Part shown: positions 1-26,032 of the stretch, one piece after another
Numbering within the stretch: the first letter of the stretch is position 1
How the letters are laid out: every line of letters begins with the position of its first letter
NCBI GenBank assembly: GCA_031412735.1
Contig: JANODO010000050.1
Coordinates: 1 to 32,000, forward strand
Length of the DNA stretch: 32,000 nucleotides
Reading direction: 5' to 3'
Source of the DNA: Rariglobus sp.
Lineage (GTDB): Bacteria; Verrucomicrobiota; Verrucomicrobiia; Opitutales; Opitutaceae
Translations under genes and position numbers: made by a program
The notes under the pieces: generated by a model
Databases searched by the model: none
Told to the model about the DNA's origin: nothing
The model's input: only the letters and a program-made list of their open reading frames with translations

Positions 1-117
1 ATCAGCCGCGAGATTGCCCGCGGTAAGTTCCCCAAGCCTGTCAGAATTGGGCGGGTCCTCCGCTTCGCCCTCTCTGATGTCGAAGCCTACGCTGCCGGTC
101 TCCATTCCTCAAAATGA
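1..117 (+). CDS. AlpA/Xis-like helix-turn-helix protein, C-terminal fragment (5' end lies left of the window)
   Basis: Frame 1 is open from the window edge and reads ISREIARGKFPKPVRIGRVLRFALSDVEAYAAGLHSSK. The TGA at 115-117 overlaps the integrase ATG (ATGA). The sequence resembles the small phage/island DNA-binding proteins that precede integrases. Confidence 0.45.
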   Translation: MSREIARGKFPKPVRIGRVLRFALSDVEAYAAGLHSSK

Positions 118-1424
118 ACGCATCGGTATTTCAGCCGATCAGAGGGGGCCGGAAAAACCGTTTCTACTCCGCAAAGATCAAGCTCCCGTCATGGCCTAAG
201 CTTCGCGTGATTTCCCTCGGGGTAACTGACAAGCGGGTCGCCGAGGAGAAGCTTCGGAAAATGGTCTTAGAATTCGAACGCGAGGCCGAGGGCATCCTTG
301 CCCCTCGCCAGATGCGCGAGGGAGTAAACAAGCCCCTTGGTGAGCATCTGGCGGCGTTTCTCGCCGATCTGACAGGGCGAGGGCGTTCGGCAAACACCCT
401 CAAGCGATACCGTAAAAGCATGACACGGCTCTTCACGCTTTGCCGCTGGTCGAAGCTCGCCGACGTCACGCCGCGCAGTTTCAGCGAGTGGCGGGGCCGC
501 TCCGATCTGGCCGCAAAATACGTCAATGACCTGCTCGGCATCCTCTCGACGTTTATGACGTGGCTGGAGCGGGAGGGCGTTATTGTTCAAAATCCGCTCA
601 AACACGTCGGCAAGGCTCGCGTCATAAAGGGGGAGGGGTATCGCCGCGCACTCTCACCGGATGAGCTGCAAAAGCTCGTAAACGCCGCCTCGCCTGAACG
701 TGCCGCCGTTTATCTCTTCATCGCCTTCACCGGCCTTCGTCGTTGCGAGATGAACGGCCTTAAGTGGGAGCATTTCGACCTCGAATCTGCCGAGCCCACC
801 GTTTCCTTGCCTGCCTCGATCACCAAGAACCGGAAGACAGCCAGGCTTCCCCTGGTCCCGCCTGCTGTGGCGGCTCTTCGCCAACTTCGGCCGGATCTGG
901 CCATGCCCTACGAGTGGGCTTTTCGTGGCAAGGTGCCTAGCCCTCGGACGCTGCGGAAAGATCTGACGAGTGCAGGAATTGCACACGTGGACGGCAAGGG
1001 GCGAGTGATTGACGTGCATGCTCTGCGCAAGACGCTCGGCACGATGCTGGCCATTCTTGGCGTCCCTCCGCGTGTGCATATGGCTCTGATGCGTCACAGC
1101 GACATGCGGCTTACGATGGACGACTATGTAACCGAGGACATGCTGCCTATGCGGGCCGCGATGCTGCGTTTGCCTCTCATAACTCTGCCGTCAAGTGATA
1201 CACAAAATGTCTTACCGGAGGCACAAAAAGACGCACTTTCGGGGGTCTTTTTAGGGCTGCAAGAGTCCTGCGCTGTCCCTGTCGGTTCAAGTCTTGCAAA
1301 TTCGCAAGACGCTGAAACAGTCGCTTTTAGACACACGAAATCCGCCTTAGACTCTCTAAGTCCGGAAAAGAAAATGGTCGGGACGGAGAGATTCGAACTC
1401 TCGACCTCTACAACCCGAATGTAG
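114..1424 (+). CDS. tyrosine-type site-specific integrase/recombinase
   Basis: 436-codon ATG ORF. The catalytic set is readable: FTGLRRCEM (Arg), HALRKTLGTML (His-x-x-Arg), LMRHSDMRLTMDDYV (His and Tyr nucleophile). An unusually long tail of about 85 aa follows the Tyr. Its last 50 nt (1375-1424) run antisense through tRNA-Pro. Confidence 0.85.
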   Translation: MNASVFQPIRGGRKNRFYSAKIKLPSWPKLRVISLGVTDKRVAEEKLRKMVLEFEREAEGILAPRQMREGVNKPLGEHLAAFLADLTGRGRSANTLKRYRKSMTRLFTLCRWSKLADVTPRSFSEWRGRSDLAAKYVNDLLGILSTFMTWLEREGVIVQNPLKHVGKARVIKGEGYRRALSPDELQKLVNAASPERAAVYLFIAFTGLRRCEMNGLKWEHFDLESAEPTVSLPASITKNRKTARLPLVPPAVAALRQLRPDLAMPYEWAFRGKVPSPRTLRKDLTSAGIAHVDGKGRVIDVHALRKTLGTMLAILGVPPRVHMALMRHSDMRLTMDDYVTEDMLPMRAAMLRLPLITLPSSDTQNVLPEAQKDALSGVFLGLQESCAVPVGSSLANSQDAETVAFRHTKSALDSLSPEKKMVGTERFELSTSTTRM

Positions 1425-1451
1425 CGCTCTACCAGGCTAAGCTACGTCCCG
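1375..1451 (-). tRNA. tRNA-Pro (anticodon CGG)
   Basis: 77-nt cloverleaf folded by hand on the minus strand. Acceptor CGGGACG/CGTCCCG; D-arm GCTT-AGCCTGGTA-GAGC; anticodon arm CTACA-TTCGGGT-TGTAG; T-arm GAGAG-TTCGAAT-CTCTC; discriminator A and an encoded CCA. Confidence 0.9.
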
Positions 1452-3640: not shown

Positions 3641-3650
3641 CTGAGTTATT

Positions 3651-3735
3651 GCCCACGAAACACACGAAATGACACGAAAGAATCAGAGCAAAGGAGCAGG
3701 GTTTCTTTTCGTGTCATTTCGTGTGTTTCGTGGGC
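3651..3735. repeat. compound hairpin element A (CACGAAA flavour)
   Basis: GCCCACGAAACACACGAAATGACACGAAA (3651-3679) is perfectly complementary (29/29) to 3707-3735, with a 27-nt loop. Each arm is three tandem (A/G)CACGAAA-like units. It sits between the MOSC stop and the mobA start. Confidence 0.95.
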
Positions 3736-4217: not shown

Positions 4218-4240
4218 CGGAAATAGGAGGCGGAGTTGTT

Positions 4241-4324
4241 GCCCACTAAAGACACGAAAGGACACGAAAGAATGGGAGCGAAAACCACGGTTTCGTTTCG
4301 TGTCATTTCGTGTGTTTCGTGGGC
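4241..4324. repeat. compound hairpin element B (CACGAAA flavour)
   Basis: The left arm GCCCACTAAAGACACGAAAGGACACGAAAG pairs 26/30 with 4295-4324. The right arm is identical to that of element A over about 27 nt. It sits between the mog stop and the MOSC start. Confidence 0.9.
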
Positions 4325-4809
4325 TAACCGCCTTGGAGGTGTTTGAGGCATTCGCGGATCGCGGGGATGAGCGGCGCTAAACACTCGCCGATGGCGCGGG
4401 GGTTGCCGGGGAGGTTGATGATGAGCGTGCGGCCGCGCGTGCCGGCGGTGGCGCGGGACAGGATCGCGGTGGGGACTTTGGCGAAACTCACGGCGCGCAT
4501 GGCTTCGCCGAAGCCGGGAAGTTCGCGTTCGAGCACGTCGCGCGTGGCTTCAGGCGTGACGTCGCGGGGCGCGGGACCGGTGCCGCCGGTGGTGACGATG
4601 AGATCGCAGTGTTCGTCGTCGCAGAGGGAGCGAAGGGTGGACGTGATGGTGGCGCGGTCGTCGGGGATGAGGCGGGTGACGAAGGTGGGCGCGGGTGTGA
4701 AGGCGGTGAGCAGGATGCGCTCGATCTCAGGGCCGGAGAGGTCGGCGTAAACGCCGGCGGAGGCGCGGTCGCTGAGGGTGACGCGGGCGATGAGGAGGGG
4801 AGCGGTCAT
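4324..4809 (-). CDS. mog: molybdopterin adenylyltransferase MogA (MoaB/Mog family)
   Basis: LIVTTGGTGPAPRDVTPEAT and LPGFGEAMRAVSFAKVPTAILSRATAGTRGRTLIINLPGNPRAI match the Mog signature blocks. ATG 4809 is chosen because the track ORF extension is hairpin arm. Confidence 0.85.
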   Translation of the reverse strand: MTAPLLIARVTLSDRASAGVYADLSGPEIERILLTAFTPAPTFVTRLIPDDRATITSTLRSLCDDEHCDLIVTTGGTGPAPRDVTPEATRDVLERELPGFGEAMRAVSFAKVPTAILSRATAGTRGRTLIINLPGNPRAIGECLAPLIPAIRECLKHLQGG

Positions 4810-4824
4810 GGAGACGGAGTTATT

Positions 4825-5036
4825 GCCCACGGAACACACGGAATACACGGAAGAAGTCGGAAACGGAGAAAACGGAGGTCGGGGTTTTAAACACGAATCA
4901 CTAAATACACGAAAATGAAAGCCTCCGATCTAGGTCCGACTTTCGTGTATTTCGTGTGTTTCGTGGTTAACCGGATTGGGAAATCGGTCTCTGTTTTTTG
5001 ATCGATTCTTCCGTGTGATCCGTGTGTTCCGTGGGC
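4825..5036. repeat. compound hairpin element C-outer (CACGGAA flavour) carrying a second element in its loop
   Basis: GCCCACGGAACACACGGAATACACGGAAGA (4825-4854) pairs 28/30 with 5007-5036. It sits between the moaC stop and the mog start. Confidence 0.9.
4887..4970. repeat. compound hairpin element C-inner (CACGAAA flavour, degenerate left arm), nested in the loop of C-outer
   Basis: The right arm TTTCGTGTATTTCGTGTGTTTCGTGGTTAA (4941-4970) is well preserved. The left arm TTAAACACGAATCACTAAATACACGAAAA has substitutions and a 1-nt deletion. Confidence 0.75.
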
Positions 5037-5497: not shown

Positions 5498-5798
5498 GAT
5501 GAGCGGCGTTTTCGGAGTTGGCGCTTGATCCACGCGGGGTCGCGGCGGCCATCAAGCACGCGTCAGATTTGAATTTCGATGGCGGTGACCCGGTAGTAGA
5601 TCACGTAAGGGAACCGTTTGGAGAGCGCCCGGTAAAAACCGGCGGATTTTCGATGATAACCGGCGTAGAGTCGCAAGGATTCAATATCGGAGAACAACTG
5701 TCCAAAAAATACGCGCCGACATTGGGAGAGCTGCGTTCGTAAAAACTGAAGCCGTCGAGCAGATCGGCTTCGGCCAGGCTGAGAAGCCGTAGATTCAC
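5494..5798 (-). pseudogene. RelE/ParE-family toxin, disrupted by one frameshift and one in-frame TGA
   Basis: From GTG 5798 the gene reads VNLRLLSLAEADLLDGFSFYERSSPNVGAYFLDS. The reading frame then slips near 5694-5698. The +2 frame continues FSDIESLRLYAGYHRKSAGFYRALSKRFPYVIYYRVTAIEIQI, then TGA (5563-5565), then [16 protein letters not shown]. The GTG overlaps the antitoxin stop (GTGA). Confidence 0.65.
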
Positions 5799-6028
5799 GC
5801 CTTTTTTTGGCTTCGGCGTTGAAGGCGGATTTTGGCGTCTGACCAATCCGAGAATGTGGCTTTGCCCGTGCGGACTGCGGCCTCGGTTTCTTGGAGGACA
5901 GCGGCGTGCCACGAAGGCGGTGAGTAAGCTGCTTCGTCGCGGGTTAGATCAACCCAGAGCAGTTCCATGGTCCGCAGTTTCTCGCGCCGTGACAGGTGTT
6001 CGATGGAAAGCGTCGTTGTCATCGGCAT
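5795..6028 (-). CDS. putative addiction-module antitoxin (CHP02574-like)
   Basis: 77 aa: MPMTTTLSIEHLSRREKLRTMELLWVDLTRDEAAYSPPSWHAAVLQETEAAVRTGKATFSDWSDAKIRLQRR. The L-S-x-x-E-(K/R)-L ... LW ... W ... G pattern is typical of this antitoxin family. ATG 6028 is chosen; the track start at 6091 is TTG. Confidence 0.65.
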   Translation of the reverse strand: MPMTTTLSIEHLSRREKLRTMELLWVDLTRDEAAYSPPSWHAAVLQETEAAVRTGKATFSDWSDAKIRLQRRSQKKA

Positions 6029-6068
6029 AGTTTTCTTGTCTGGGAGGGGAAGGCAACAGCCGGTTTTT

Positions 6069-7259
6069 TTAGCGGCAGGGGAGGACTTCAACTTCCGCAG
6101 TCAGCGGTGTGGTGGGGACGCGTAGGAGTCCTTCGGTTTTGGCGAGGAGCGTGAGGTCGGAGGAGTCGCGCCACGGGAGCGGCAGGACCCGGCGGGTGGC
6201 ACCCTCGTCTGACCAGAGGCAAGGCCACCAGGTTTCGCGCGGGTCGGGGCGCAACTCGGCTTCGGGGGCGAGCGTAGCGTGCACGAGCGCGGTGGGTTCG
6301 GTGCCGGCGAGGCGGGCGAGCACGCGTTTCACGAAGAGATGGAAACAGACGAAGTGAGAGAGCGGGTTGCCCGGCAGGCCGAAGGCGAGGCGTCCGTCGC
6401 GCGAGGCGGCGATGAAGGGCTTGCCGGGGCGGCTGGCGACCTTGTCGCAGTGAATTTTGAAGCCCTGGGCGGCGAGCAACGCGCCGGTATGGTCGTGGTC
6501 GCCGACGCTGGCTCCGCCGCTGATGAGGATAATGTCGGCGTCGGTGGAGAGCGCGGCGGCGAGTGCATCGGCGGTGGCGGCACGGGAGTCGGAGACGCGT
6601 TGTTGCCAAATCAGTTCGGCGTGGGCGTCGGCGAGAAGCGCGGCGATGAGCGTGGAGTTGGAATCGCGGATCTGGCCGAAGGCGGGTTGGGCTTCGGGGG
6701 GGACGAGTTCGCCGCCGGTGACGAGGTGGGCGACGCGGGCGCGGCGGGACACGAGCGGCGTGGTTGCGCCGAGGGAGGCGAGGAGGGCGAGTGCGCCAGC
6801 GTTGAGTGGCTGGCCGGTAGCGAGGAGTTGGGCACCGGCGCAGGCTTGAGAGCCGCGGCGGCGGATGTGTTTGGTCGAGGGCGGCTGGAGGAGTTCGAGT
6901 TGGTTTGCGGACGAGCCGACGAGGCGGGTGTCCTCCTGCATGATGAGGGCGGCGGCGGGGTCGGAGGGAAGTGCGCTGCCGGTGAGGATGCGGAGGGCGG
7001 TGCCGACGGGGGGGGCGGCGGCGGGCGCGGGAGAGCCGGGGGCGATGGTCCCGGCGAGGGTGACGGTGCCGGGGAGTTGGGTGGAGTGGACGAGGTAGCC
7101 GTCGATGGCGGAACGGTCGAAGGGCGGCTGGTCTTCGGGCGCGAGGATGGGCTCGCGTAGAATGAGGTTGTGCGTCGAGGCGAGCGGGACGCGCTCGGCA
7201 GGGAGGGGCGACGGAACGAGGGCGTCGAGGCGTATCCAGAGATCGGCGACGGAGATCAT
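6069..7259 (-). CDS. moeA: molybdopterin molybdotransferase MoeA
   Basis: PPFDRSAIDGY, ILISGGASVGDHDH, ASRPGKPF and GLPGNPLSHFVCFHLFV match MoeA. ATG 7259 (MISVADLW) is preferred over TTG 7280; it overlaps the GxxExxY stop as TGATG. Confidence 0.9.
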   Translation of the reverse strand: MISVADLWIRLDALVPSPLPAERVPLASTHNLILREPILAPEDQPPFDRSAIDGYLVHSTQLPGTVTLAGTIAPGSPAPAAAPPVGTALRILTGSALPSDPAAALIMQEDTRLVGSSANQLELLQPPSTKHIRRRGSQACAGAQLLATGQPLNAGALALLASLGATTPLVSRRARVAHLVTGGELVPPEAQPAFGQIRDSNSTLIAALLADAHAELIWQQRVSDSRAATADALAAALSTDADIILISGGASVGDHDHTGALLAAQGFKIHCDKVASRPGKPFIAASRDGRLAFGLPGNPLSHFVCFHLFVKRVLARLAGTEPTALVHATLAPEAELRPDPRETWWPCLWSDEGATRRVLPLPWRDSSDLTLLAKTEGLLRVPTTPLTAEVEVLPCR

Positions 7260-7759
7260 CAAGCGCGGAAAGAAATCCAAGCTACCGAGCTGGCGACTAG
7301 CAGGGTGACAAGCGAGAGCAGTCCTACGCCGGATGATCGTTCGTCTTGAAAAAGTGATCCGCAGGCCACGCGTTTTATTCCCTCTTTCATGACGGGCACG
7401 TTGAAGTTGAGCAGGAGCCCGAGAGACCTACGTTTCAGTTTAAGATAAGTAAGGAGCTGTGCTTGGTGGATCGGCTGGAACGAGTGGATCGATTTCAGTT
7501 CGATGATGAGTTCGTCCTCGACGATAAAATCCAGGCGATAGTCGCAATCGAGCGACACTCCCTTATAAGTAAGCGGGATGTCGCATTGGCGTTCATAACG
7601 CAGACCAGCGTGGGTTAATTCGTATGCGAGTGCCTCTTCATAGGCTGATTCGAGCAAGCCGGGGCCGAGTTCACGGTGCACCTCAATGCACAAGCCGATC
7701 ACACGATGGGAGAGTTGGTTGATGCGTTCTTTCTTAGCTTCGTTTTCTGGCGTCAGCAT
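7259..7759 (-). CDS. GxxExxY protein (PD-(D/E)XK nuclease-like fold) with a hydrophobic C-terminal extension of about 34 aa
   Basis: LSHRVIGLCIEVHRELGPGLLESAYEEALAYEL carries the GxxExxY signature, and YRLDFIVEDELIIELKSI carries a D...ExK core. GLLLNFN and IKRV mark the usual family C-terminus, after which the ORF runs on to 7259. It is visibly AT-richer than its neighbours. ATG 7759 is chosen because the track extension is hairpin arm. Confidence 0.85.
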   Translation of the reverse strand: MLTPENEAKKERINQLSHRVIGLCIEVHRELGPGLLESAYEEALAYELTHAGLRYERQCDIPLTYKGVSLDCDYRLDFIVEDELIIELKSIHSFQPIHQAQLLTYLKLKRRSLGLLLNFNVPVMKEGIKRVACGSLFQDERSSGVGLLSLVTLLVASSVAWISFRA

Positions 7760-7805
7760 AGAGGTGGAGATGTAGGGTGTGTTGGAGTGAAGGCGGGCGG
7801 AGTTT

Positions 7806-7906
7806 TTCACCACAAAGGCACGAAGACACAAAGGTCGGATAGAGAAATCAGCAGGTGAGATTGTGCACTTTATGAGAACTTTGTGTCACTGTGTCTTTGT
7901 GGTTAA
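7806..7906. repeat. compound hairpin element D (CACAAAG flavour)
   Basis: TTCACCACAAAGGCACGAAGACACAAAGGT (7806-7835) pairs 24/30 with 7877-7906 (AACTTTGTGTCACTGTGTCTTTGTGGTTAA). It sits between the moaE stop and the GxxExxY start. Confidence 0.85.
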
Positions 7907-7925
7907 AATCAGCGATGCATTGAGC

Positions 7926-8318
7926 TCATTGCAACGTGTCGGTTTTCCAGATGGGCACGTCTTGTTTGAGGCGGTCCATGAAGGCGGCGAGGAGGGCGAA
8001 GGCGGGGGCGCGGTGCTTGGCTTGGACGGCGATGTGAATGGCGGCCTCGCCCACAGGGATGATGCCGATGCGATGTTGGACGAAGACGGAGTGGCAGGGG
8101 TGCGCGGCGGCGAGTTCGGTGAGTAGGCGGTGCATCACGGTTTCGGCCATCGGTTGGTAGGCTTCGTAAACGAGGGCGGAGATGGGCTGGTCGTTTTCCG
8201 AGCCGCGCACCAGTCCGGTGAACGTCGCGAGGGCACCGATGTCGGGGTTGGCACGCGAAGCGGGCGGGACGATGACGGCGGAGGAAATGAGGATCTCAAT
8301 GTGCACGGCGGATTTCAA
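7926..8318 (-). CDS. moaE: molybdopterin synthase catalytic subunit MoaE
   Basis: ATFTGLVRG, YEAYQPMAE, HRIGIIPVGEAAIHIAVQAKHRAPAF and MDRLKQDVPIWK match MoaE. The start is TTG 8318 or GTG 8306. Confidence 0.88.
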   Translation of the reverse strand: MKSAVHIEILISSAVIVPPASRANPDIGALATFTGLVRGSENDQPISALVYEAYQPMAETVMHRLLTELAAAHPCHSVFVQHRIGIIPVGEAAIHIAVQAKHRAPAFALLAAFMDRLKQDVPIWKTDTLQ

Positions 8319-8801: not shown

Positions 8802-11800
8802 TCACGGAGACCTCTCCACTTGATTGGCCAGCAGGGTGGCGACTACCGGATTACCGGTCGGTGCCGCCAACTCCACGGCGTAGCCTTTGCCTCCTTCGTA
8901 AATACTTACGACTGCGCCAATGGTGCCGACTGCAAAATCGTGCCCCTCTTCGACGACGGGCACTAGTAAACGCACGCAATCGTGCTCGGCAATGGCGGGC
9001 GCGATGGAGAGTTGGTAGTGGGAATCCAGCTCGGTGTGCAGGGATAGGATCGCGGCGATGCGCCGGACGTGGTGGGTGAACTGCTGCGCCTCGTCACTCG
9101 TAAGGGCGCGACCCAGCAAATCGACCTCGCGGTAGCTGAGCCACTTCTTGAGCACCTGATAGCCGCCGAGGGTGTAACTCCAGACCGCCACGGGAACGTC
9201 TTTCCACCGGGTGGTGGCGTTGAGGTGGATGTCGATAAAGCCGTCGCCGCGCGTGCCGGTGCTTGTCTGGCCGGGGCCGGGCATGGTGACGCCGTTTTGA
9301 CCGGCGTAGCCCCAACGTGCTTTGAGCGAGAGGTCGGGGGTCTTCTCACCCGGTTTGAGGGCGAGTTCACCGAGGCCTTTGAGGTCGACGCGGACTTTGA
9401 GGCTGGTGACGCCTTCGACGGGCGTTTCAGGATCGAGTAGTGCGGCGATTTTGCGGCCAAGGCCGGCTCCTGAGCGGAGAACTTGGGCGGTCTTCGGCAG
9501 GGGCACGCGGGGCCAATCCTGTCTGAGAGCCCCGGCATTTTCTTCCCGATAAAGCGGTGCGTGTAGCACGGCGACGATGTGGAAGAACAGGTCTTCTGGT
9601 CCGGCCTCCAATTCCGCCAGATAGTCCTTCGCGAAATCCGTCAGGTTGGGCTGCGGGCCGCTAGGCCCCGATGATTCGAAGAGATCGGACTGCGGTTCTT
9701 TGGAAGCTGCGTCGTCAGCCGCCGCGTGTAGATAGAGCGGGAAGAAATTGGAAAGCCCGTTGGCGAAGTTATCAGCGAGCAGAGTTGTCACGGTGCCACG
9801 ATCCCAGCCGTCTCGGCTTTCTGACTTCCTTGCCTCAATCCAGAAGTTTCCAGAAAAGACGTGTTTCACATACTCGGGACGTTTCTCGTCGAGGAGTTTT
9901 GTGTGTGGATTCCAATATAGCCAACGGGCATCGAAGGGGCGATAAAGGTAGCGGAAGAAGCGACCACTTTCGATGCCGTGATTTTGCAAATCTCCCCTAA
10001 CCTTCTTCGCATCAAAGCGGCCTGAGTCGTCCTTCAGTCCTGCTAGCCTGCCATCAAGCGATGAGAACGATACCTTTGGGTTGAAGTAGCGTTGCATACG
10101 TTCTTCCAACGCGCCGCGAGCAACGTCTATCAGCGAATCATCGCGACTAGTTTTCACTCCAGGAAAAGACGTGCCTAACAATTCGGGGAGCAGTTGCCAA
10201 TTTTCGTAGTCTTCACGAACGCCTATTGGGATGAACGGCAGCCCGAATTTGAGCGCGGGTTTTAGAGCCTGAGACTGCTTTGGGATTTCCAAAGAGACTT
10301 CCAACTCTGCTCGCTTCAATTTTCCCCACCAATGCCGAAAGTTAAGATCCGCGTGAGGATTGTAGGCAGTCGCATCGGTATCCGCCGCACGCGGCTTGCC
10401 CTTCGGTCTGCGCTCCATGAGCGCGATAGCCGTTCCCACCTGAATGCCTTCGCGATTTTTCTCGGTCGAGAAGACGCTTGGGTCGGGCTGACCATCGGGT
10501 GTCTTTTTGCCGGTCTTGTATTTATCGCCGTTGAGGCAGTCGATGGTGATGGAGTCGAAGACCTCCATGAAGCGCTCGCGCATGCCGGTGTGGGACAGGC
10601 CGTCGAGCCAGGAGTAATTGCTAATGTAGCAGATGATGCCCTTGGCATCGGGACGAGGCCGGCCGGGTTTGTCGTCATCGGACTTCGGCACGCCTTCGGC
10701 GATGCGGCGCTCGGCCATCCGGAAAAAGCGGACGTAAAGATCGTTGAGTCCCTGACCCTGCGGAGCGGCAACCGTCTTCACGTGGCGGTAGGATTCGGAG
10801 AGATTGCGTTCCTCTTCTACGGCCAGGCCGGCGTAGCCGTCGTAGGGAGGGTTGCCGAGGACGACGATGATCTCGGACTTCTGCTTCACGTGGTCGGCGG
10901 CGTCGCGTTCGTCTGAAAACTCGGAGAATAGGACTTGGTCTTTCGGGTGTTTGACGGGCACCCAGCCGGTGAGGGCGTTGGTTAGGAATACCCCGGCGCG
11001 CTCGTCCTTACCGTGGTCGAGCTCGGCGCCCCAGCGGGTGAGCATGAGGTCGATCTGGAGATGGGAGACGACGTAGGGCGCGGGCAGGAGCTCAAAGCCG
11101 TAGAGGCGATGTTTGGCGACTTCGCGGATTTTCAGCGCAGCTTGGGCTTCGCCGTAGCCCTCGACGAGGCGGCGGCGGATGAGTTTGAGCGTCTCGACGA
11201 GGTAGGCACCGGTGCCGCAGCAAGGATCGAGGACGACGACGGAGGGATCGGCGAGGCCATCGGGTAGGTTGAAGTTTTCGCGCAGGGCGCGGTCCACGCT
11301 GCCGACCATGTAGCGGACGATCTCGGGCGGGGTATACCAGACGCCGAAATCCTTGCGCAGCTCGGGGTCGAACTCGGCGAGGAAGGGCTCGTAGAAGTAT
11401 TGCACGGCCTCGCCCATGTCGTAGCGAGCGAAGAAACTGTTGCGCTCCACGCGGGCCAGGCACTCCTCGGTCCAGTCGAGCACCTCTTCAAGGTTGAGCG
11501 CACGGATTTTTTTAGGATCGCTGGCGAGCTGGATGAAGAGCGTGCGCAGGATAGGAAGGCCGAGATGCTGGGCGGAGAGTCGCCACTGGAAACGCTCGCC
11601 GGGTTTGGGGTGGGCTTCGTGCCAGAGCACCCAAGCGGAGAAGATGCCGTAGAAGAGCGTCTGGATGAGCGTGGACTGGAAGAAATGGACGCCCTTCTCG
11701 CCCTCGAAGTGAACGCCAAGAGCGTCGGACAGGGCCTTTTTCACCGGTTCAAGCGTGCCCATCGGGGCCACCTCCACGCGGGCGCGAGCTTCACGGGCAT

Positions 11801-12386
11801 AGCTGGCGAGGTAAGTGGCGAGGTCTTGAGGTGTGGCGATACGTGCGGTGGAGAGCAGGGCGCGGCGGAGGAATTGCCACAGGCGCTCATTCTCGGGGTG
11901 CTGGGGATTCTGGCGGAGGGTGTGAACCTTATCCCAGAATTCGTTTTCGCTGGCGGCGACGATGTAGCGTTCGCCTTGGACCGCCTTGCCGTCTTTCCAT
12001 GACCAGAGCGAGAAGGCGCGGTAGTTGGTAAGGAGGATCTGGCCGTAGTGCTCCAGGTAATTGCGGACCTGCGGGGTCGATTCGAAGGAGGAGAGATCCT
12101 TCTCGATGGGTTTGATTTCGACGACGCCGCGCTCGGGTTTGAGTTGGCCGAAAAGGGAGGCGCGGTCGTCGCCGTATTTCTTGAGTTCTTTGGCGGAGAA
12201 GAGGCCGCCGTCGGGAATACCGGCTCCGCTGTTCGCCGGATGGATTACGGCTGTGATCTTGGGTTTGAGGGTTTCTCCGACCGCGTTGAGCAGTTTGGAG
12301 AGTGCGGGATAGCCGCTGGTCTCCGGCACGCCGATGCCTGAGATGCTATGAAGTTCTACAAGGTAGTCGGCGACGGGGGATGACAT
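8802..12386 (-). CDS. single-chain Type IIG-like N6-adenine DNA methyltransferase (MmeI/YeeA/Type ISP-C-terminal family), possible N-terminal PD-ExK nuclease, C-terminal DUF4926-like domain
   Basis: 1194 aa with an ATG start. YFYEPFLAEFDPELRKDFGVWYTPPEIVRYMV is the block typical of MmeI/PglX/ISP methylases. VVLDPCCGTGAYL is SAM motif I and VVLGNPPYDGYAG is catalytic NPPY motif IV. WSYTLGGYQVLKKWLSYRE matches the conserved C-terminal domain of Type ISP/YeeA enzymes. No helicase or Mrr domain is apparent. The last ~65 aa (VRLLVPVVEEGHDFAVGTIGAVVSIYEGGKGYAVELAAPTGNPVVATLLANQV) look like DUF4926. Confidence 0.85.
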   Translation of the reverse strand: MSSPVADYLVELHSISGIGVPETSGYPALSKLLNAVGETLKPKITAVIHPANSGAGIPDGGLFSAKELKKYGDDRASLFGQLKPERGVVEIKPIEKDLSSFESTPQVRNYLEHYGQILLTNYRAFSLWSWKDGKAVQGERYIVAASENEFWDKVHTLRQNPQHPENERLWQFLRRALLSTARIATPQDLATYLASYAREARARVEVAPMGTLEPVKKALSDALGVHFEGEKGVHFFQSTLIQTLFYGIFSAWVLWHEAHPKPGERFQWRLSAQHLGLPILRTLFIQLASDPKKIRALNLEEVLDWTEECLARVERNSFFARYDMGEAVQYFYEPFLAEFDPELRKDFGVWYTPPEIVRYMVGSVDRALRENFNLPDGLADPSVVVLDPCCGTGAYLVETLKLIRRRLVEGYGEAQAALKIREVAKHRLYGFELLPAPYVVSHLQIDLMLTRWGAELDHGKDERAGVFLTNALTGWVPVKHPKDQVLFSEFSDERDAADHVKQKSEIIVVLGNPPYDGYAGLAVEEERNLSESYRHVKTVAAPQGQGLNDLYVRFFRMAERRIAEGVPKSDDDKPGRPRPDAKGIICYISNYSWLDGLSHTGMRERFMEVFDSITIDCLNGDKYKTGKKTPDGQPDPSVFSTEKNREGIQVGTAIALMERRPKGKPRAADTDATAYNPHADLNFRHWWGKLKRAELEVSLEIPKQSQALKPALKFGLPFIPIGVREDYENWQLLPELLGTSFPGVKTSRDDSLIDVARGALEERMQRYFNPKVSFSSLDGRLAGLKDDSGRFDAKKVRGDLQNHGIESGRFFRYLYRPFDARWLYWNPHTKLLDEKRPEYVKHVFSGNFWIEARKSESRDGWDRGTVTTLLADNFANGLSNFFPLYLHAAADDAASKEPQSDLFESSGPSGPQPNLTDFAKDYLAELEAGPEDLFFHIVAVLHAPLYREENAGALRQDWPRVPLPKTAQVLRSGAGLGRKIAALLDPETPVEGVTSLKVRVDLKGLGELALKPGEKTPDLSLKARWGYAGQNGVTMPGPGQTSTGTRGDGFIDIHLNATTRWKDVPVAVWSYTLGGYQVLKKWLSYREVDLLGRALTSDEAQQFTHHVRRIAAILSLHTELDSHYQLSIAPAIAEHDCVRLLVPVVEEGHDFAVGTIGAVVSIYEGGKGYAVELAAPTGNPVVATLLANQVERSP

Positions 12387-12824: not shown

Positions 12825-12945
12825 TTAACCATAAAGACACGGAGGCACAAAGGACTCACAAAGACCGGAAAACTGACGATTACAGCAGAGGGCAATCGAG
12901 GCTGAACTTTGTGAGGCCTTTGTGCCTTGGTGTCTTTGTGGTGAA
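12825..12945. repeat. compound hairpin element E (CACAAAG flavour, 39-nt arms), inverted relative to D
   Basis: TTAACCATAAAGACACGGAGGCACAAAGGACTCACAAAG (12825-12863) pairs 34/39 with 12907-12945. The asymmetric ends are TTAACC on the left and GGTGAA on the right, swapped relative to element D. Confidence 0.88.
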
Positions 12946-25794: not shown

Positions 25795-25915
25795 AAAAGT
25801 CAGGGTGGGGATCGCGGAGCGCACCTGCAAGCAGGCGGCCTACGGATTGGGAGACATACGCACGGCGCAGGCTTTGTAATACCAGTTATAGCATGAAATG
25901 AGACTTTCGTCTGGT

Positions 25916-25973
25916 GTAGGCCCGACCGGTGGTCGGGCGTCTCCTAGAAACCCCGACCACCGGTCGGGGCTAC
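25916..25973. repeat. REPIN-like inverted doublet of a GTAG-headed REP (CCCGACCGGTGGTCGGG core)
   Basis: GTAGGCCCGACCGGTGGTCGGG (25916-25937) faces CCCCGACCACCGGTCGGGGCTAC (25951-25973). Each unit is itself a hairpin, CCCGACC-GGT-GGTCGGG. Confidence 0.85.
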
Positions 25974-26032
25974 ATCGGGGCATGCTAAAGTCCGGCGCGA
26001 GTGCGGGTTGAGTGCGGGAACGCCTGCGTCGT

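Follow-up and report, generated by a model that had tools for sequence, protein, structure and literature searches.

A GxxExxY nuclease gene in the moa/moe operon of Rariglobus sp. and the inverted octamer arms that bracket its family

The intervening sequence of Coxiella 23S ribosomal RNA (rRNA) is a selfish element of 428-444 nucleotides (nt) that has a 28-bp stem of terminal inverted repeats, carries three tandem heptamers (GACAGAT) just before an open reading frame (ORF) of ~120 residues (S23p, PF05635) and is cut out by RNase III, its origin and mobility being unexplained (PMC4990558). Intervening sequences that lack an ORF also exist, such as that of Salmonella at ~100 nt, and are regarded as selfish elements as well (PMC4990558, PMC2672173). 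In REPIN/RAYT systems, as parts of the literature on them outline, a small enzyme gene is flanked by inverted copies of a repeat that forms dispersed hairpins (PMC3116915, PMC3337134, PMC5581495), and domesticated RAYTs are portrayed there as vertically inherited under purifying selection (PMC5581495). Here we analyzed a stretch of 32000 nt from Rariglobus sp. (GenBank assembly GCA_031412735.1, contig JANODO010000050.1, positions 1-32000 of the forward strand; hereafter the window), in which a gene of the GxxExxY family lies between moaE and moeA of a moa/moe operon, downstream of a short hairpin that we call hairpin D. The insertion probably combines a copy of this hairpin with a functional GxxExxY gene descended from a compact hairpin cassette. 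That cassette is an intervening-sequence-like or REPIN-like unit carrying a PD-(D/E)XK nuclease, a layout that we did not find described before: GxxExxY, TIGR04256 and PF13366 receive incidental mentions in the literature that we found, and the bracket and arm sequences reported below appear nowhere in it.

The operon is read from the minus strand, to which all operon coordinates below refer, in the order moaD, moaE, hairpin, a spacer of ~45 nt, a 166-codon ORF and moeA. The ORF call spans 7259-7831; with the ATG at 7759 (MLTPENEAKK...) as its realistic start codon, the gene has 166 codons plus stop at 7259-7759. Its product matches PF13366 (PDDEXK_3; E=3e-42, 144.1 bits against a cut-off of 22) and NCBIfam TIGR04256 (GxxExxY; E=2e-43, 147.4 bits against a cut-off of 35); PF13366 is the sole Pfam match at E <= 0.01, with neither a HuH/Y1 (IS200-like) transposase nor S23p (PF05635) among the matches. 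The GxxExxY motif is intact (G34-L-L-E37-S-A-Y40), as are the catalytic residues D77, E87 and K89 within RLDFIVEDELIIELK, and motif and catalytic residues are invariant among the aligned relatives. An AlphaFold2 model (pLDDT 82.5) shows an alpha-beta core and a low-confidence C-terminal tail, and its best Foldseek matches in the Protein Data Bank (PDB), Cas4 SSO0001 and lambda exonuclease, are weak (E ~5e-3, probability 0.93-0.97, TM-score 0.33-0.38). PADLOC returned a weak Cas4 match and nothing else, sequence searches found no PDB relative, PHROGs gave no match, and our literature search found no biochemical study of any family member. The gene is flanked upstream by moaE (7926-8318; PF02391, E=1.5e-28) and downstream by moeA (6069-7259; MoeA_N and MoCF_biosynth domains), and G+C content is 0.48-0.55 over 7300-7900 versus 0.65-0.75 in the neighboring genes. 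Its stop (TGA, 7261-7259) overlaps the moeA start (ATG, 7259-7257) in the sequence TGATG (7257-7261), and the two are coupled in the window. A search for a promoter of the gene's own gave one weak sigma-70-like match inside the hairpin, not above shuffles, and no terminator of its own was found. A first-pass annotation of the window had proposed a GxxExxY gene inserted between moaE and moeA, of low G+C and overlapping the moeA ATG, and these proposals are borne out by the profile matches, the composition, the sequence of the overlap and the empty sites of relatives described below.

Across the family, the usual form of the gene in bacteria and some archaea is a compact unit enclosed by inverted arms. 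Scanning one genome per species gave 80 GxxExxY loci, from Verrucomicrobia, Planctomycetes, Acidobacteria, Chloroflexi, Cyanobacteria, Bacteroidota, Alpha-, Beta-, Gamma- and Deltaproteobacteria, Lentisphaerae and methanogenic archaea; comparison loci, ~300 in all, carry labels of the form L001. The bracket test compared 195 nt around the gene start with the reverse complement of 270 nt around the gene end. A gene-spanning inverted repeat scored at least 15 at 54/81 GxxExxY genes versus 0/400 random control positions, and at least 13 at 61/81 versus 3/400. The 38 clean brackets have 373-681 nt between their arms, with one at 1318 nt. Repeats that span the gene recur in isolates as well as in metagenome-assembled genomes of many sources, so that an artefact of assembly or annotation is unlikely. 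Each arm is composed of three tandem octamers, with the consensus nnTTT[C/A]ACC-R-C-R-R-A-G-R-C-R-C-N-R-A-G... over 39 units from many phyla; the first octamer holds four invariant bases (C, C, A, G), and the variable purines give rise to flavors (CAC or CGC; AGAG, AAAG, GGAG or GAAG). The two arms of one unit are 91% complementary, a start codon follows the 5' arm in 20/26 units, and the stop stands ahead of the 3' arm, 4-16 nt past the profile end, in 25 of 33 units, the ORF running through the arm in the remaining eight. Two copies lie within 20 kb of each other in L011, L033, L046 and L057. The physical link between GxxExxY genes and hairpins suggested by the first-pass annotation is thus not a chance one and is stronger than was proposed, as the same octamer-type arms bracket two thirds of the genes scored. 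Its further expectation, that hairpins adjoin other GxxExxY genes, holds for these arms but not clearly for complete short hairpins, which do not stand out against the intergenic expectation.

The bracket also offers an account of the C-terminal end of the window protein. The PF13366 and TIGR04256 profiles stop at ...GIKRV, and the protein has 35 residues beyond this point, which had been taken for a local read-through to the moeA start. The extension is real but not local: most of the best 120 homologues are ~166 residues long, with alignments that cover 95-100% of the query and take in the tail, and the tail is common to the whole 166-residue Opitutaceae subfamily. In intact copies the N-terminus (MNHKDTEAQR) is encoded by the 5' arm, ATGAACCACAAAGACACAGAGGCACAAAG, and the C-terminus, LLLCASVSLWFK (LLCASVSLWFK), by the 3' arm, CTTTGTGCCTCTGTGTCTTTGTGGTTCAAA, which is the exact reverse complement of ATGAACCACAAAGACACAGAGGCACAAAG. 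One such Opitutaceae cassette (L305) has arms complementary at 28/28 positions and a 501-nt ORF that occupies the entire element, wedged between gspE, whose stop lies 9 nt upstream, and gspF (TGAcATG). The same arm-encoded termini occur in L006, L007, L008 and L009, and further copies sit between the genes for PqqD and VKOR and, in TAV5, between hydrogenase/complex-I-type subunit genes. Judged by these intact copies, the tail of the window protein (codons 134-166 plus stop, 7259-7360) is a translated relic of the 3' pyrimidine-rich arm of the cassette, now unpaired, rather than a local read-through. The gene-spanning inverted repeat itself is gone in the window, L001 and L005 (score 8-9, z 0.4-1.9; in the window, score 9 and z 1.7), and, with the DNA of its own arms decayed, the copy in this lineage is presumably immobile.

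At 7259-7908 the window carries an old insertion, placed where moaE and moeA formerly overlapped in ATGA. At this junction Rariglobus hedericola (L085), L086 and L088 have the ATGA overlap with nothing in between, reading ...GCATGAT... in the junction alignment, and L087 has two hairpin half-arms only. By alignment with the empty sites, the ATGA at the moaE end of the window insertion (7926-7929) is a relic of the ancestral overlap of moaE stop and moeA start, and a second ATGA (7256-7259) closes the insertion; ATGA thus stands on both flanks, yet it is also needed there to keep both genes intact. The same arrangement of moaE, hairpin, GxxExxY gene and moeA recurs in L001 and L005, with GxxExxY proteins 90-92% identical to that of the window, and in the distant L298, L299 and L300 (GxxExxY 71-75%, MoeA 54-70%). 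The gap from the GxxExxY stop to the moeA ATG is at most 11 nt in all carriers (7 nt in L001 and L005, 8-11 nt in L298-L300), and the TGATG overlap is unique to the window among them, arising from a 7-nt loss between TGATCTCC repeats. On a MoeA tree the carriers were monophyletic in 0/200 bootstraps, and the non-carriers L085, L086 and L087 are nearer to the window than the carriers L298-L300; to account for this non-monophyly, the insertion must have been lost exactly, or gained at this one site, about three times. GxxExxY distances show only mild incongruence. For the core (codons 1-133), the window, L001 and L005 give a ratio of nonsynonymous to synonymous substitution (dN/dS) of ~0.04 at dS 0.64-0.87, which implies that the GxxExxY protein is functional and has long been maintained. 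We date the insertion as old because the junction is shared down to 54% MoeA identity, because relatives with the empty site exist and because of this low core dN/dS. In the same three loci the tail codons 134-166 have a dN/dS of 0.4-0.8 at a dS of only 0.16-0.20, a pattern that points to constraint on the nucleotides and not on the reading frame.

Hairpin D (7804-7908), an element of ~101 nt of the CACAAAG flavor, has a 5' purine-rich arm at 7879-7908 and a 3' arm at 7804-7833. It forms an inverted repeat with arms 7804-7844 and 7868-7908 that are 78% complementary, and its folding energy as RNA is -34.4 kcal/mol (z = -4.9; 0/200 shuffles as stable). The tail AAAAACTCCGCC follows as an exact match at 7796-7807 and is overlapped by the minus-strand 5' end of the spacer (7760-7803), which leads to the GxxExxY ATG. 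A hairpin with its family tail ~45 nt upstream of the gene is therefore present as first annotated, but the tail belongs to the short hairpin element generally and not to the gene; related tails, AAYAACTCCGNCTCC, lie 3' of the other hairpins of the operon as part of the inserted DNA and abut the ATG of the next gene. The additional claim that the gene has its own hairpin did not survive, as hairpin D shares 82% identity, over the loop as well, with a copy that L005 has at a different junction (12156-12257, the 101-nt element being 12156-12256), and because that copy lies elsewhere without a GxxExxY gene we assign hairpin D to a dispersed family. A CACAAAG-flavor hairpin is found at the same position in all six carriers (the window, L001, L005, L298, L299 and L300), with conserved arms and a diverged loop, which suggests either a joint insertion of hairpin and gene or selection on the hairpin at this site.

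The hairpins of the window are made of cassette-type arms with loops of 25-70 nt. CACGAAA-flavor hairpins lie between the MOSC gene and mobA (3649-3735) and, with a tail, between moaB and the MOSC gene (4226-4327, the hairpin at about 4239-4324); between moaC and moaB a CACGGAA hairpin (4823-5036) carries a CACGAAA hairpin (about 4886-4972) nested in its loop; and outside the operon a CACAAAG hairpin with four octamers per arm occupies 12825-12945, its strand not assigned. The moaB/MOSC junction, filled in the window, is empty in L001, the moaC/moaB junction holds the nested pair in the window, a CACGAAA hairpin in L001 and a CACAAAG hairpin in L005, and R. hedericola has no hairpin in its moa/moe operon. 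Compared in this way across relatives, the short hairpins appear to behave as mobile DNA that is not tied to the GxxExxY gene. At the moaB/MOSC junction of L005 (12740-12800) a different perfect palindrome, GATGCACAACTGTGTTCCGGCCGGAACACAGTTGTGCATC, takes the place of the CACGAAA hairpin. Nested hairpins recur (window 4823-5036, L087 8095-8244, L248 and L267), a pattern that points to the loops of hairpins as favored sites of insertion. In L008 (1515-1625) and similar Opitutaceae elements the short hairpins start with ATGAACCAC and can be read as element-long mini-ORFs (MNHEDTETPRK...FVPLWLNRD, then stop); with mini-ORFs of this kind, ORF-less hairpin elements might also preserve translational coupling. 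In unbiased samples of arms, most are short hairpins or degenerate halves. A separate arrangement was seen in L191 (2520-2730), where a run of six 5'-type arms, in which GAACCACAGAG... units take turns with TTCACCACGAAG... units, stands upstream of a membrane-protein gene with no complementary arms in ~970 nt downstream. Beside Verrucomicrobia GxxExxY genes the density of hairpins is 2.9 per kb, 13-fold the whole-locus rate (P=3e-7); we set this enrichment aside, as the excess is largely gone once the confinement of hairpins to intergenic DNA is allowed for.

By its layout, the closest known relative of the GxxExxY cassette appears to be the ORF-bearing 23S rRNA intervening sequence. The two are of similar size (428-444 nt against ~450-500 bp) and share a stem of ~28 bp from terminal inverted repeats, which the GxxExxY family has at 54/81 genes and the window copy lacks, three tandem repeats of 7-8 nt just before the start codon, a single small ORF in the loop (~120 residues, ~125 in the cassette), short versions without an ORF, and insertion into highly transcribed DNA without killing host function. 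They differ in that the GxxExxY ORF encodes a PD-(D/E)XK nuclease (PF13366) and the ORF of the intervening sequence a four-helix bundle (S23p/PF05635; Coxiella, Leptospira, Haemophilus), in that GxxExxY cassettes lie at intercistronic junctions of protein-coding operons and intervening sequences in helix 25 or 45 of 23S rRNA, and in that the repeat is a conserved CRCRRAG octamer rather than GACAGAT. Intervening sequences are excised by RNase III; such processing of the cassettes would be by analogy, and their arms have no sense-strand G.U bias. None of the ~300 loci contains a conserved rRNA motif.

Genes of the PF05635 type provide a further comparison, as eight PF05635-like ORFs (four checked against Pfam) occur in the comparison loci, none of them in rRNA, and five or six of the eight lie between inverted arrays in which short repeats, for the most part 7-8-mers, follow one another in tandem. 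Bracketed PF05635 genes outside rRNA are found at L015 975-1334, L055 11829-12206, L054 5998-6375 and L188 8586-9125; one bracket reads GGGTATA six times upstream and TATACCC ten times downstream. The PF05635 repeats (GGGTATA; GACGAGGGACAAGGGGCGAGT; GCAGAAG...; CACTGAA) are unrelated to CRCRRAG, even in genomes that also have a GxxExxY cassette (L015, L055). That CRCRRAG is specific to GxxExxY and conserved across phyla argues for sequence-specific recognition rather than a need for any stem.

In function, the closest analogy would be REPIN/RAYT. There, as here, the enzyme gene is flanked by an inverted repeat whose arms also form dispersed intergenic hairpins of ~100 bp (for GxxExxY, in the same loci), the hairpins act as non-autonomous mobile DNA, and the enzyme gene can be inherited vertically under purifying selection. 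The GxxExxY enzyme is of the PD-(D/E)XK type and RAYT is a HuH/Y1 transposase; the GxxExxY gene is multi-copy and patchy, the pairs of copies within 20 kb in four loci arguing against a single copy; its arms are arrays of three octamers and not one REP tagged GTAG or CGTC; and these arms abut or overlap the ORF ends and bracket other cargo as well. Homing endonuclease genes, which are free-standing or borne by introns or inteins and include PD-(D/E)XK members such as I-Ssp6803I, likewise consist of a small nuclease gene of low G+C whose insertion is tolerated as host gene expression is preserved, and the same host site is filled in some lineages and cleanly empty in others, in a pattern that may depart from the host tree. 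They differ from the GxxExxY gene, which has no intron or intein, occupies many insertion sites and not one cognate site, bears arms that have no classical counterpart and would cleave a target only by analogy. The Correia/NEMIS elements of Neisseria, which are miniature inverted-repeat transposable elements, are hairpins of ~100-150 bp with terminal inverted repeats and resemble the short hairpins in their intergenic or intercistronic position, their co-transcription with neighbors and their nested and partial copies; they differ in that no target-site duplication is definable in our comparison of filled and empty sites and in that the arms are internally repetitive, with three or four octamers. 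To our knowledge, no DDE transposase partner of octamer-repeat hairpins is known. We discarded integron attC sites by inspection: the ends read TT[C/A]ACC...GGT[G/T]AA and not RYYYAAC...GTTRRRY, each arm is itself made of repeats, and each unit stands alone in an operon and not in an array.

We propose that the ancestral cassette had the usual form of the family, with a 5' arm of three octamers, a start codon, an ORF of ~125 codons, a stop and a reverse-complement 3' arm; the intergenic hairpins of the window are ORF-less structures built of such arms. Opitutaceae ORFs of the subfamily read through both arms, filling the element and ending beside the start of the downstream gene, so that a cassette inserted at an intercistronic junction leaves translational coupling in place. 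In the window lineage the gene's own arms have decayed, with the nuclease core held under strong purifying selection and the former arm kept open as a tail up to the moeA ATG. Cassettes and short hairpins alike may be present or past mobile selfish elements that settle at gene junctions, and the paired arms may be the site that acts in cis, whether in RNA, through an RNase III-type stem like that of intervening sequences, or in DNA, through a hairpin or cruciform. The nuclease might recognize the CRCRRAG octamers and so favor, in the way of homing genes, the spread or retention of the cassette that encodes it. We advance tentatively, as a possibility short of probable, that the nuclease recognizes octamer arrays and promotes cassette spread or retention, with the ORF-less hairpins as its targets or non-autonomous relatives.

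Several observations weigh against this proposal. From filled and empty sites we could define no target-site duplication other than the ATGA that stands at either end of the window insertion, and no recent movement was caught, the two proteins found on several contigs being always in identical context. Arm flavor and GxxExxY clade, whose correlation the first-pass annotation had suggested checking, are almost uncoupled: same-flavor pairs are barely closer in protein than others (59.3% versus 58.4% identity; 0.9-1.5 percentage points), a gain too small to make a case for flavor-specific recognition. Mismatches within 38 arm pairs, read on the sense strand, comprise 28 G.U and 38 A.C (p=0.27 in what is a weak test), and with no excess of G.U there is no sign of selection for a sense-RNA stem. 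Only 3/120 arm-bearing metagenome loci contain a GxxExxY gene, each directly beside an arm, and 0/89 arm-bearing IMG/VR viral contigs do so. CRCRRAG-type arms sometimes enclose other small genes, namely a DUF433/DUF5615 (PIN-like) pair (L014 1848-3024), a MUG113/T5orf172 protein (L068 3246-4071), a 60-residue zinc-ribbon ORF (L126 2816-3073) and two unknown ORFs of ~115 residues on IMG/VR contigs (L112 849-1254 and 9165-9573). An origin of the short hairpins as internal-deletion derivatives of cassettes found no support, as 25 Verrucomicrobia loops aligned with the parts of cassette interiors that adjoin the arms gave a mean z of 0.15. Contact between protein and arms is something that we infer; the window copy has no arms, so that arm-directed activity is not needed at its own locus, and the strong conservation of this arm-less copy may reflect a host function.

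A different relation of hairpin to gene would hold if GxxExxY, like RAYT, were a trans-acting enzyme that copies short hairpins around the genome and is flanked by its own substrate. This is the strong form of what the first-pass annotation had suggested, namely that hairpins may be substrates or non-autonomous relatives of GxxExxY units. The inverted copies of the dispersed-hairpin repeat on either side of the gene, an arm motif conserved across phyla and distinct from the PF05635 arms of the same genomes, the mobile behavior of the hairpins, and a vertically inherited copy under strong purifying selection, much as described in part for domesticated RAYTs (PMC5581495), are all in keeping with such an enzyme. 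We nevertheless regard this as quite unlikely, given that a PD-(D/E)XK nuclease of ~125 residues has no known strand-transfer chemistry, that the family is multi-copy and patchy and not one per genome, that arm flavor is nearly independent of protein clade, with several flavors within one genome, and that arm-bearing phage-like contigs lack the gene and hairpin loops are unrelated to cassette interiors. Somewhat less doubtful, although still on the unlikely side, is that the arms form a generic cassette boundary, or an RNase III-stem processing module that insulates an inserted gene, and are moved by other machinery or by hairpin recombination; the same judgment covers its corollary, that GxxExxY is simply the commonest cargo, a nuclease serving in defense, in a toxin-like role or in repair. 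Intervening sequences in rRNA work in this way (PMC4990558), the arms bracket unrelated cargo, other repeats form an identical layout around PF05635 genes, and the arm-less window copy is still strongly conserved and has weak similarity to Cas4. A need for a stem alone, however, predicts that arms drift, as they do around PF05635, and the GxxExxY arms keep their invariant bases in groups as far apart as Verrucomicrobia, cyanobacteria and archaea; the bracket is retained in about two thirds to three quarters of the family members sampled, and the sense strand lacks a G.U bias.

For the window alone, hairpin D and the GxxExxY gene could be neighbors by chance, as both kinds of element settle at intercistronic junctions and either one may have inserted beside the other when that was already resident. 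Copies of the hairpin D element occur at other places where there is no GxxExxY gene, hairpins lie at most junctions of the moa/moe operon, and the density of hairpins beside Verrucomicrobia GxxExxY genes is about the intergenic expectation. Such independence is a real possibility, if one that we consider doubtful, because six of six carriers keep the CACAAAG hairpin in place with conserved arms and a diverged loop. In a broader form of the proposal that we favor, which we offer as speculative and, on balance, unlikely, GxxExxY proteins would serve the mobility or retention of hairpin cassettes that make up a very widespread class, not described before and akin to the 23S rRNA intervening sequences. 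The protein would recognize the conserved CRCRRAG octamer in the inverted arrays around the ORF of each cassette, and the abundant ORF-less hairpins at gene junctions would be targets or non-autonomous forms.

The window holds other insertions and repeats. A second lineage-specific insertion (5540-6076), absent from L001 and L005, lies between moeA and moaC, is of low G+C and encodes an Unstab_antitox (PF09720) antitoxin followed by an apparently frameshifted ParE/RelE-like toxin ORF; no hairpin arms were found around it. Directly upstream of the operon, 8802-12386 (minus strand) encodes a Type ISP/MmeI-like restriction-modification protein of 1194 residues with Type_ISP_C, N6_Mtase and MmeI_Mtase domains and a C-terminal DUF4926, and the hairpin at 12825-12945 lies beyond it. 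A phage-type integrase-like ORF (114-1424, plus strand) abuts or overlaps a tRNA gene (1378-1451, minus strand), a typical island integration site. Strong G+C-rich palindromes at 1555-1628 and 25915-25974, with arms of 27 nt and 23 nt that are 96% complementary, stand outside the octamer-repeat family. Across the window, Rfam reported only tRNA at gathering thresholds, with sub-threshold matches at E<=1 to generic hairpins (miRNA precursors).

PF13366/TIGR04256 is a very large family, with at least 8000 candidates at E<=1e-10, and it gains here, as one of no known function, a first concrete candidate substrate, as most of its members sit inside a conserved octamer bracket. The intergenic hairpins of these genomes are now linked to a protein family. 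For annotation, low-complexity extensions at the N- and C-termini of its members, such as MNHKDTE... and ...LCASVSLWFK, are to be read as translated hairpin arms. The layout of the intervening sequence, a stem of tandem repeats around one small ORF, emerges as a general cassette design that occurs outside rRNA in at least two gene families, which reopens the question of how intervening sequences arise and move. If GxxExxY proteins do prove to be mobility or retention enzymes, this would bear on the origin and spread of intervening sequences, which have stayed unexplained for ~30 years.

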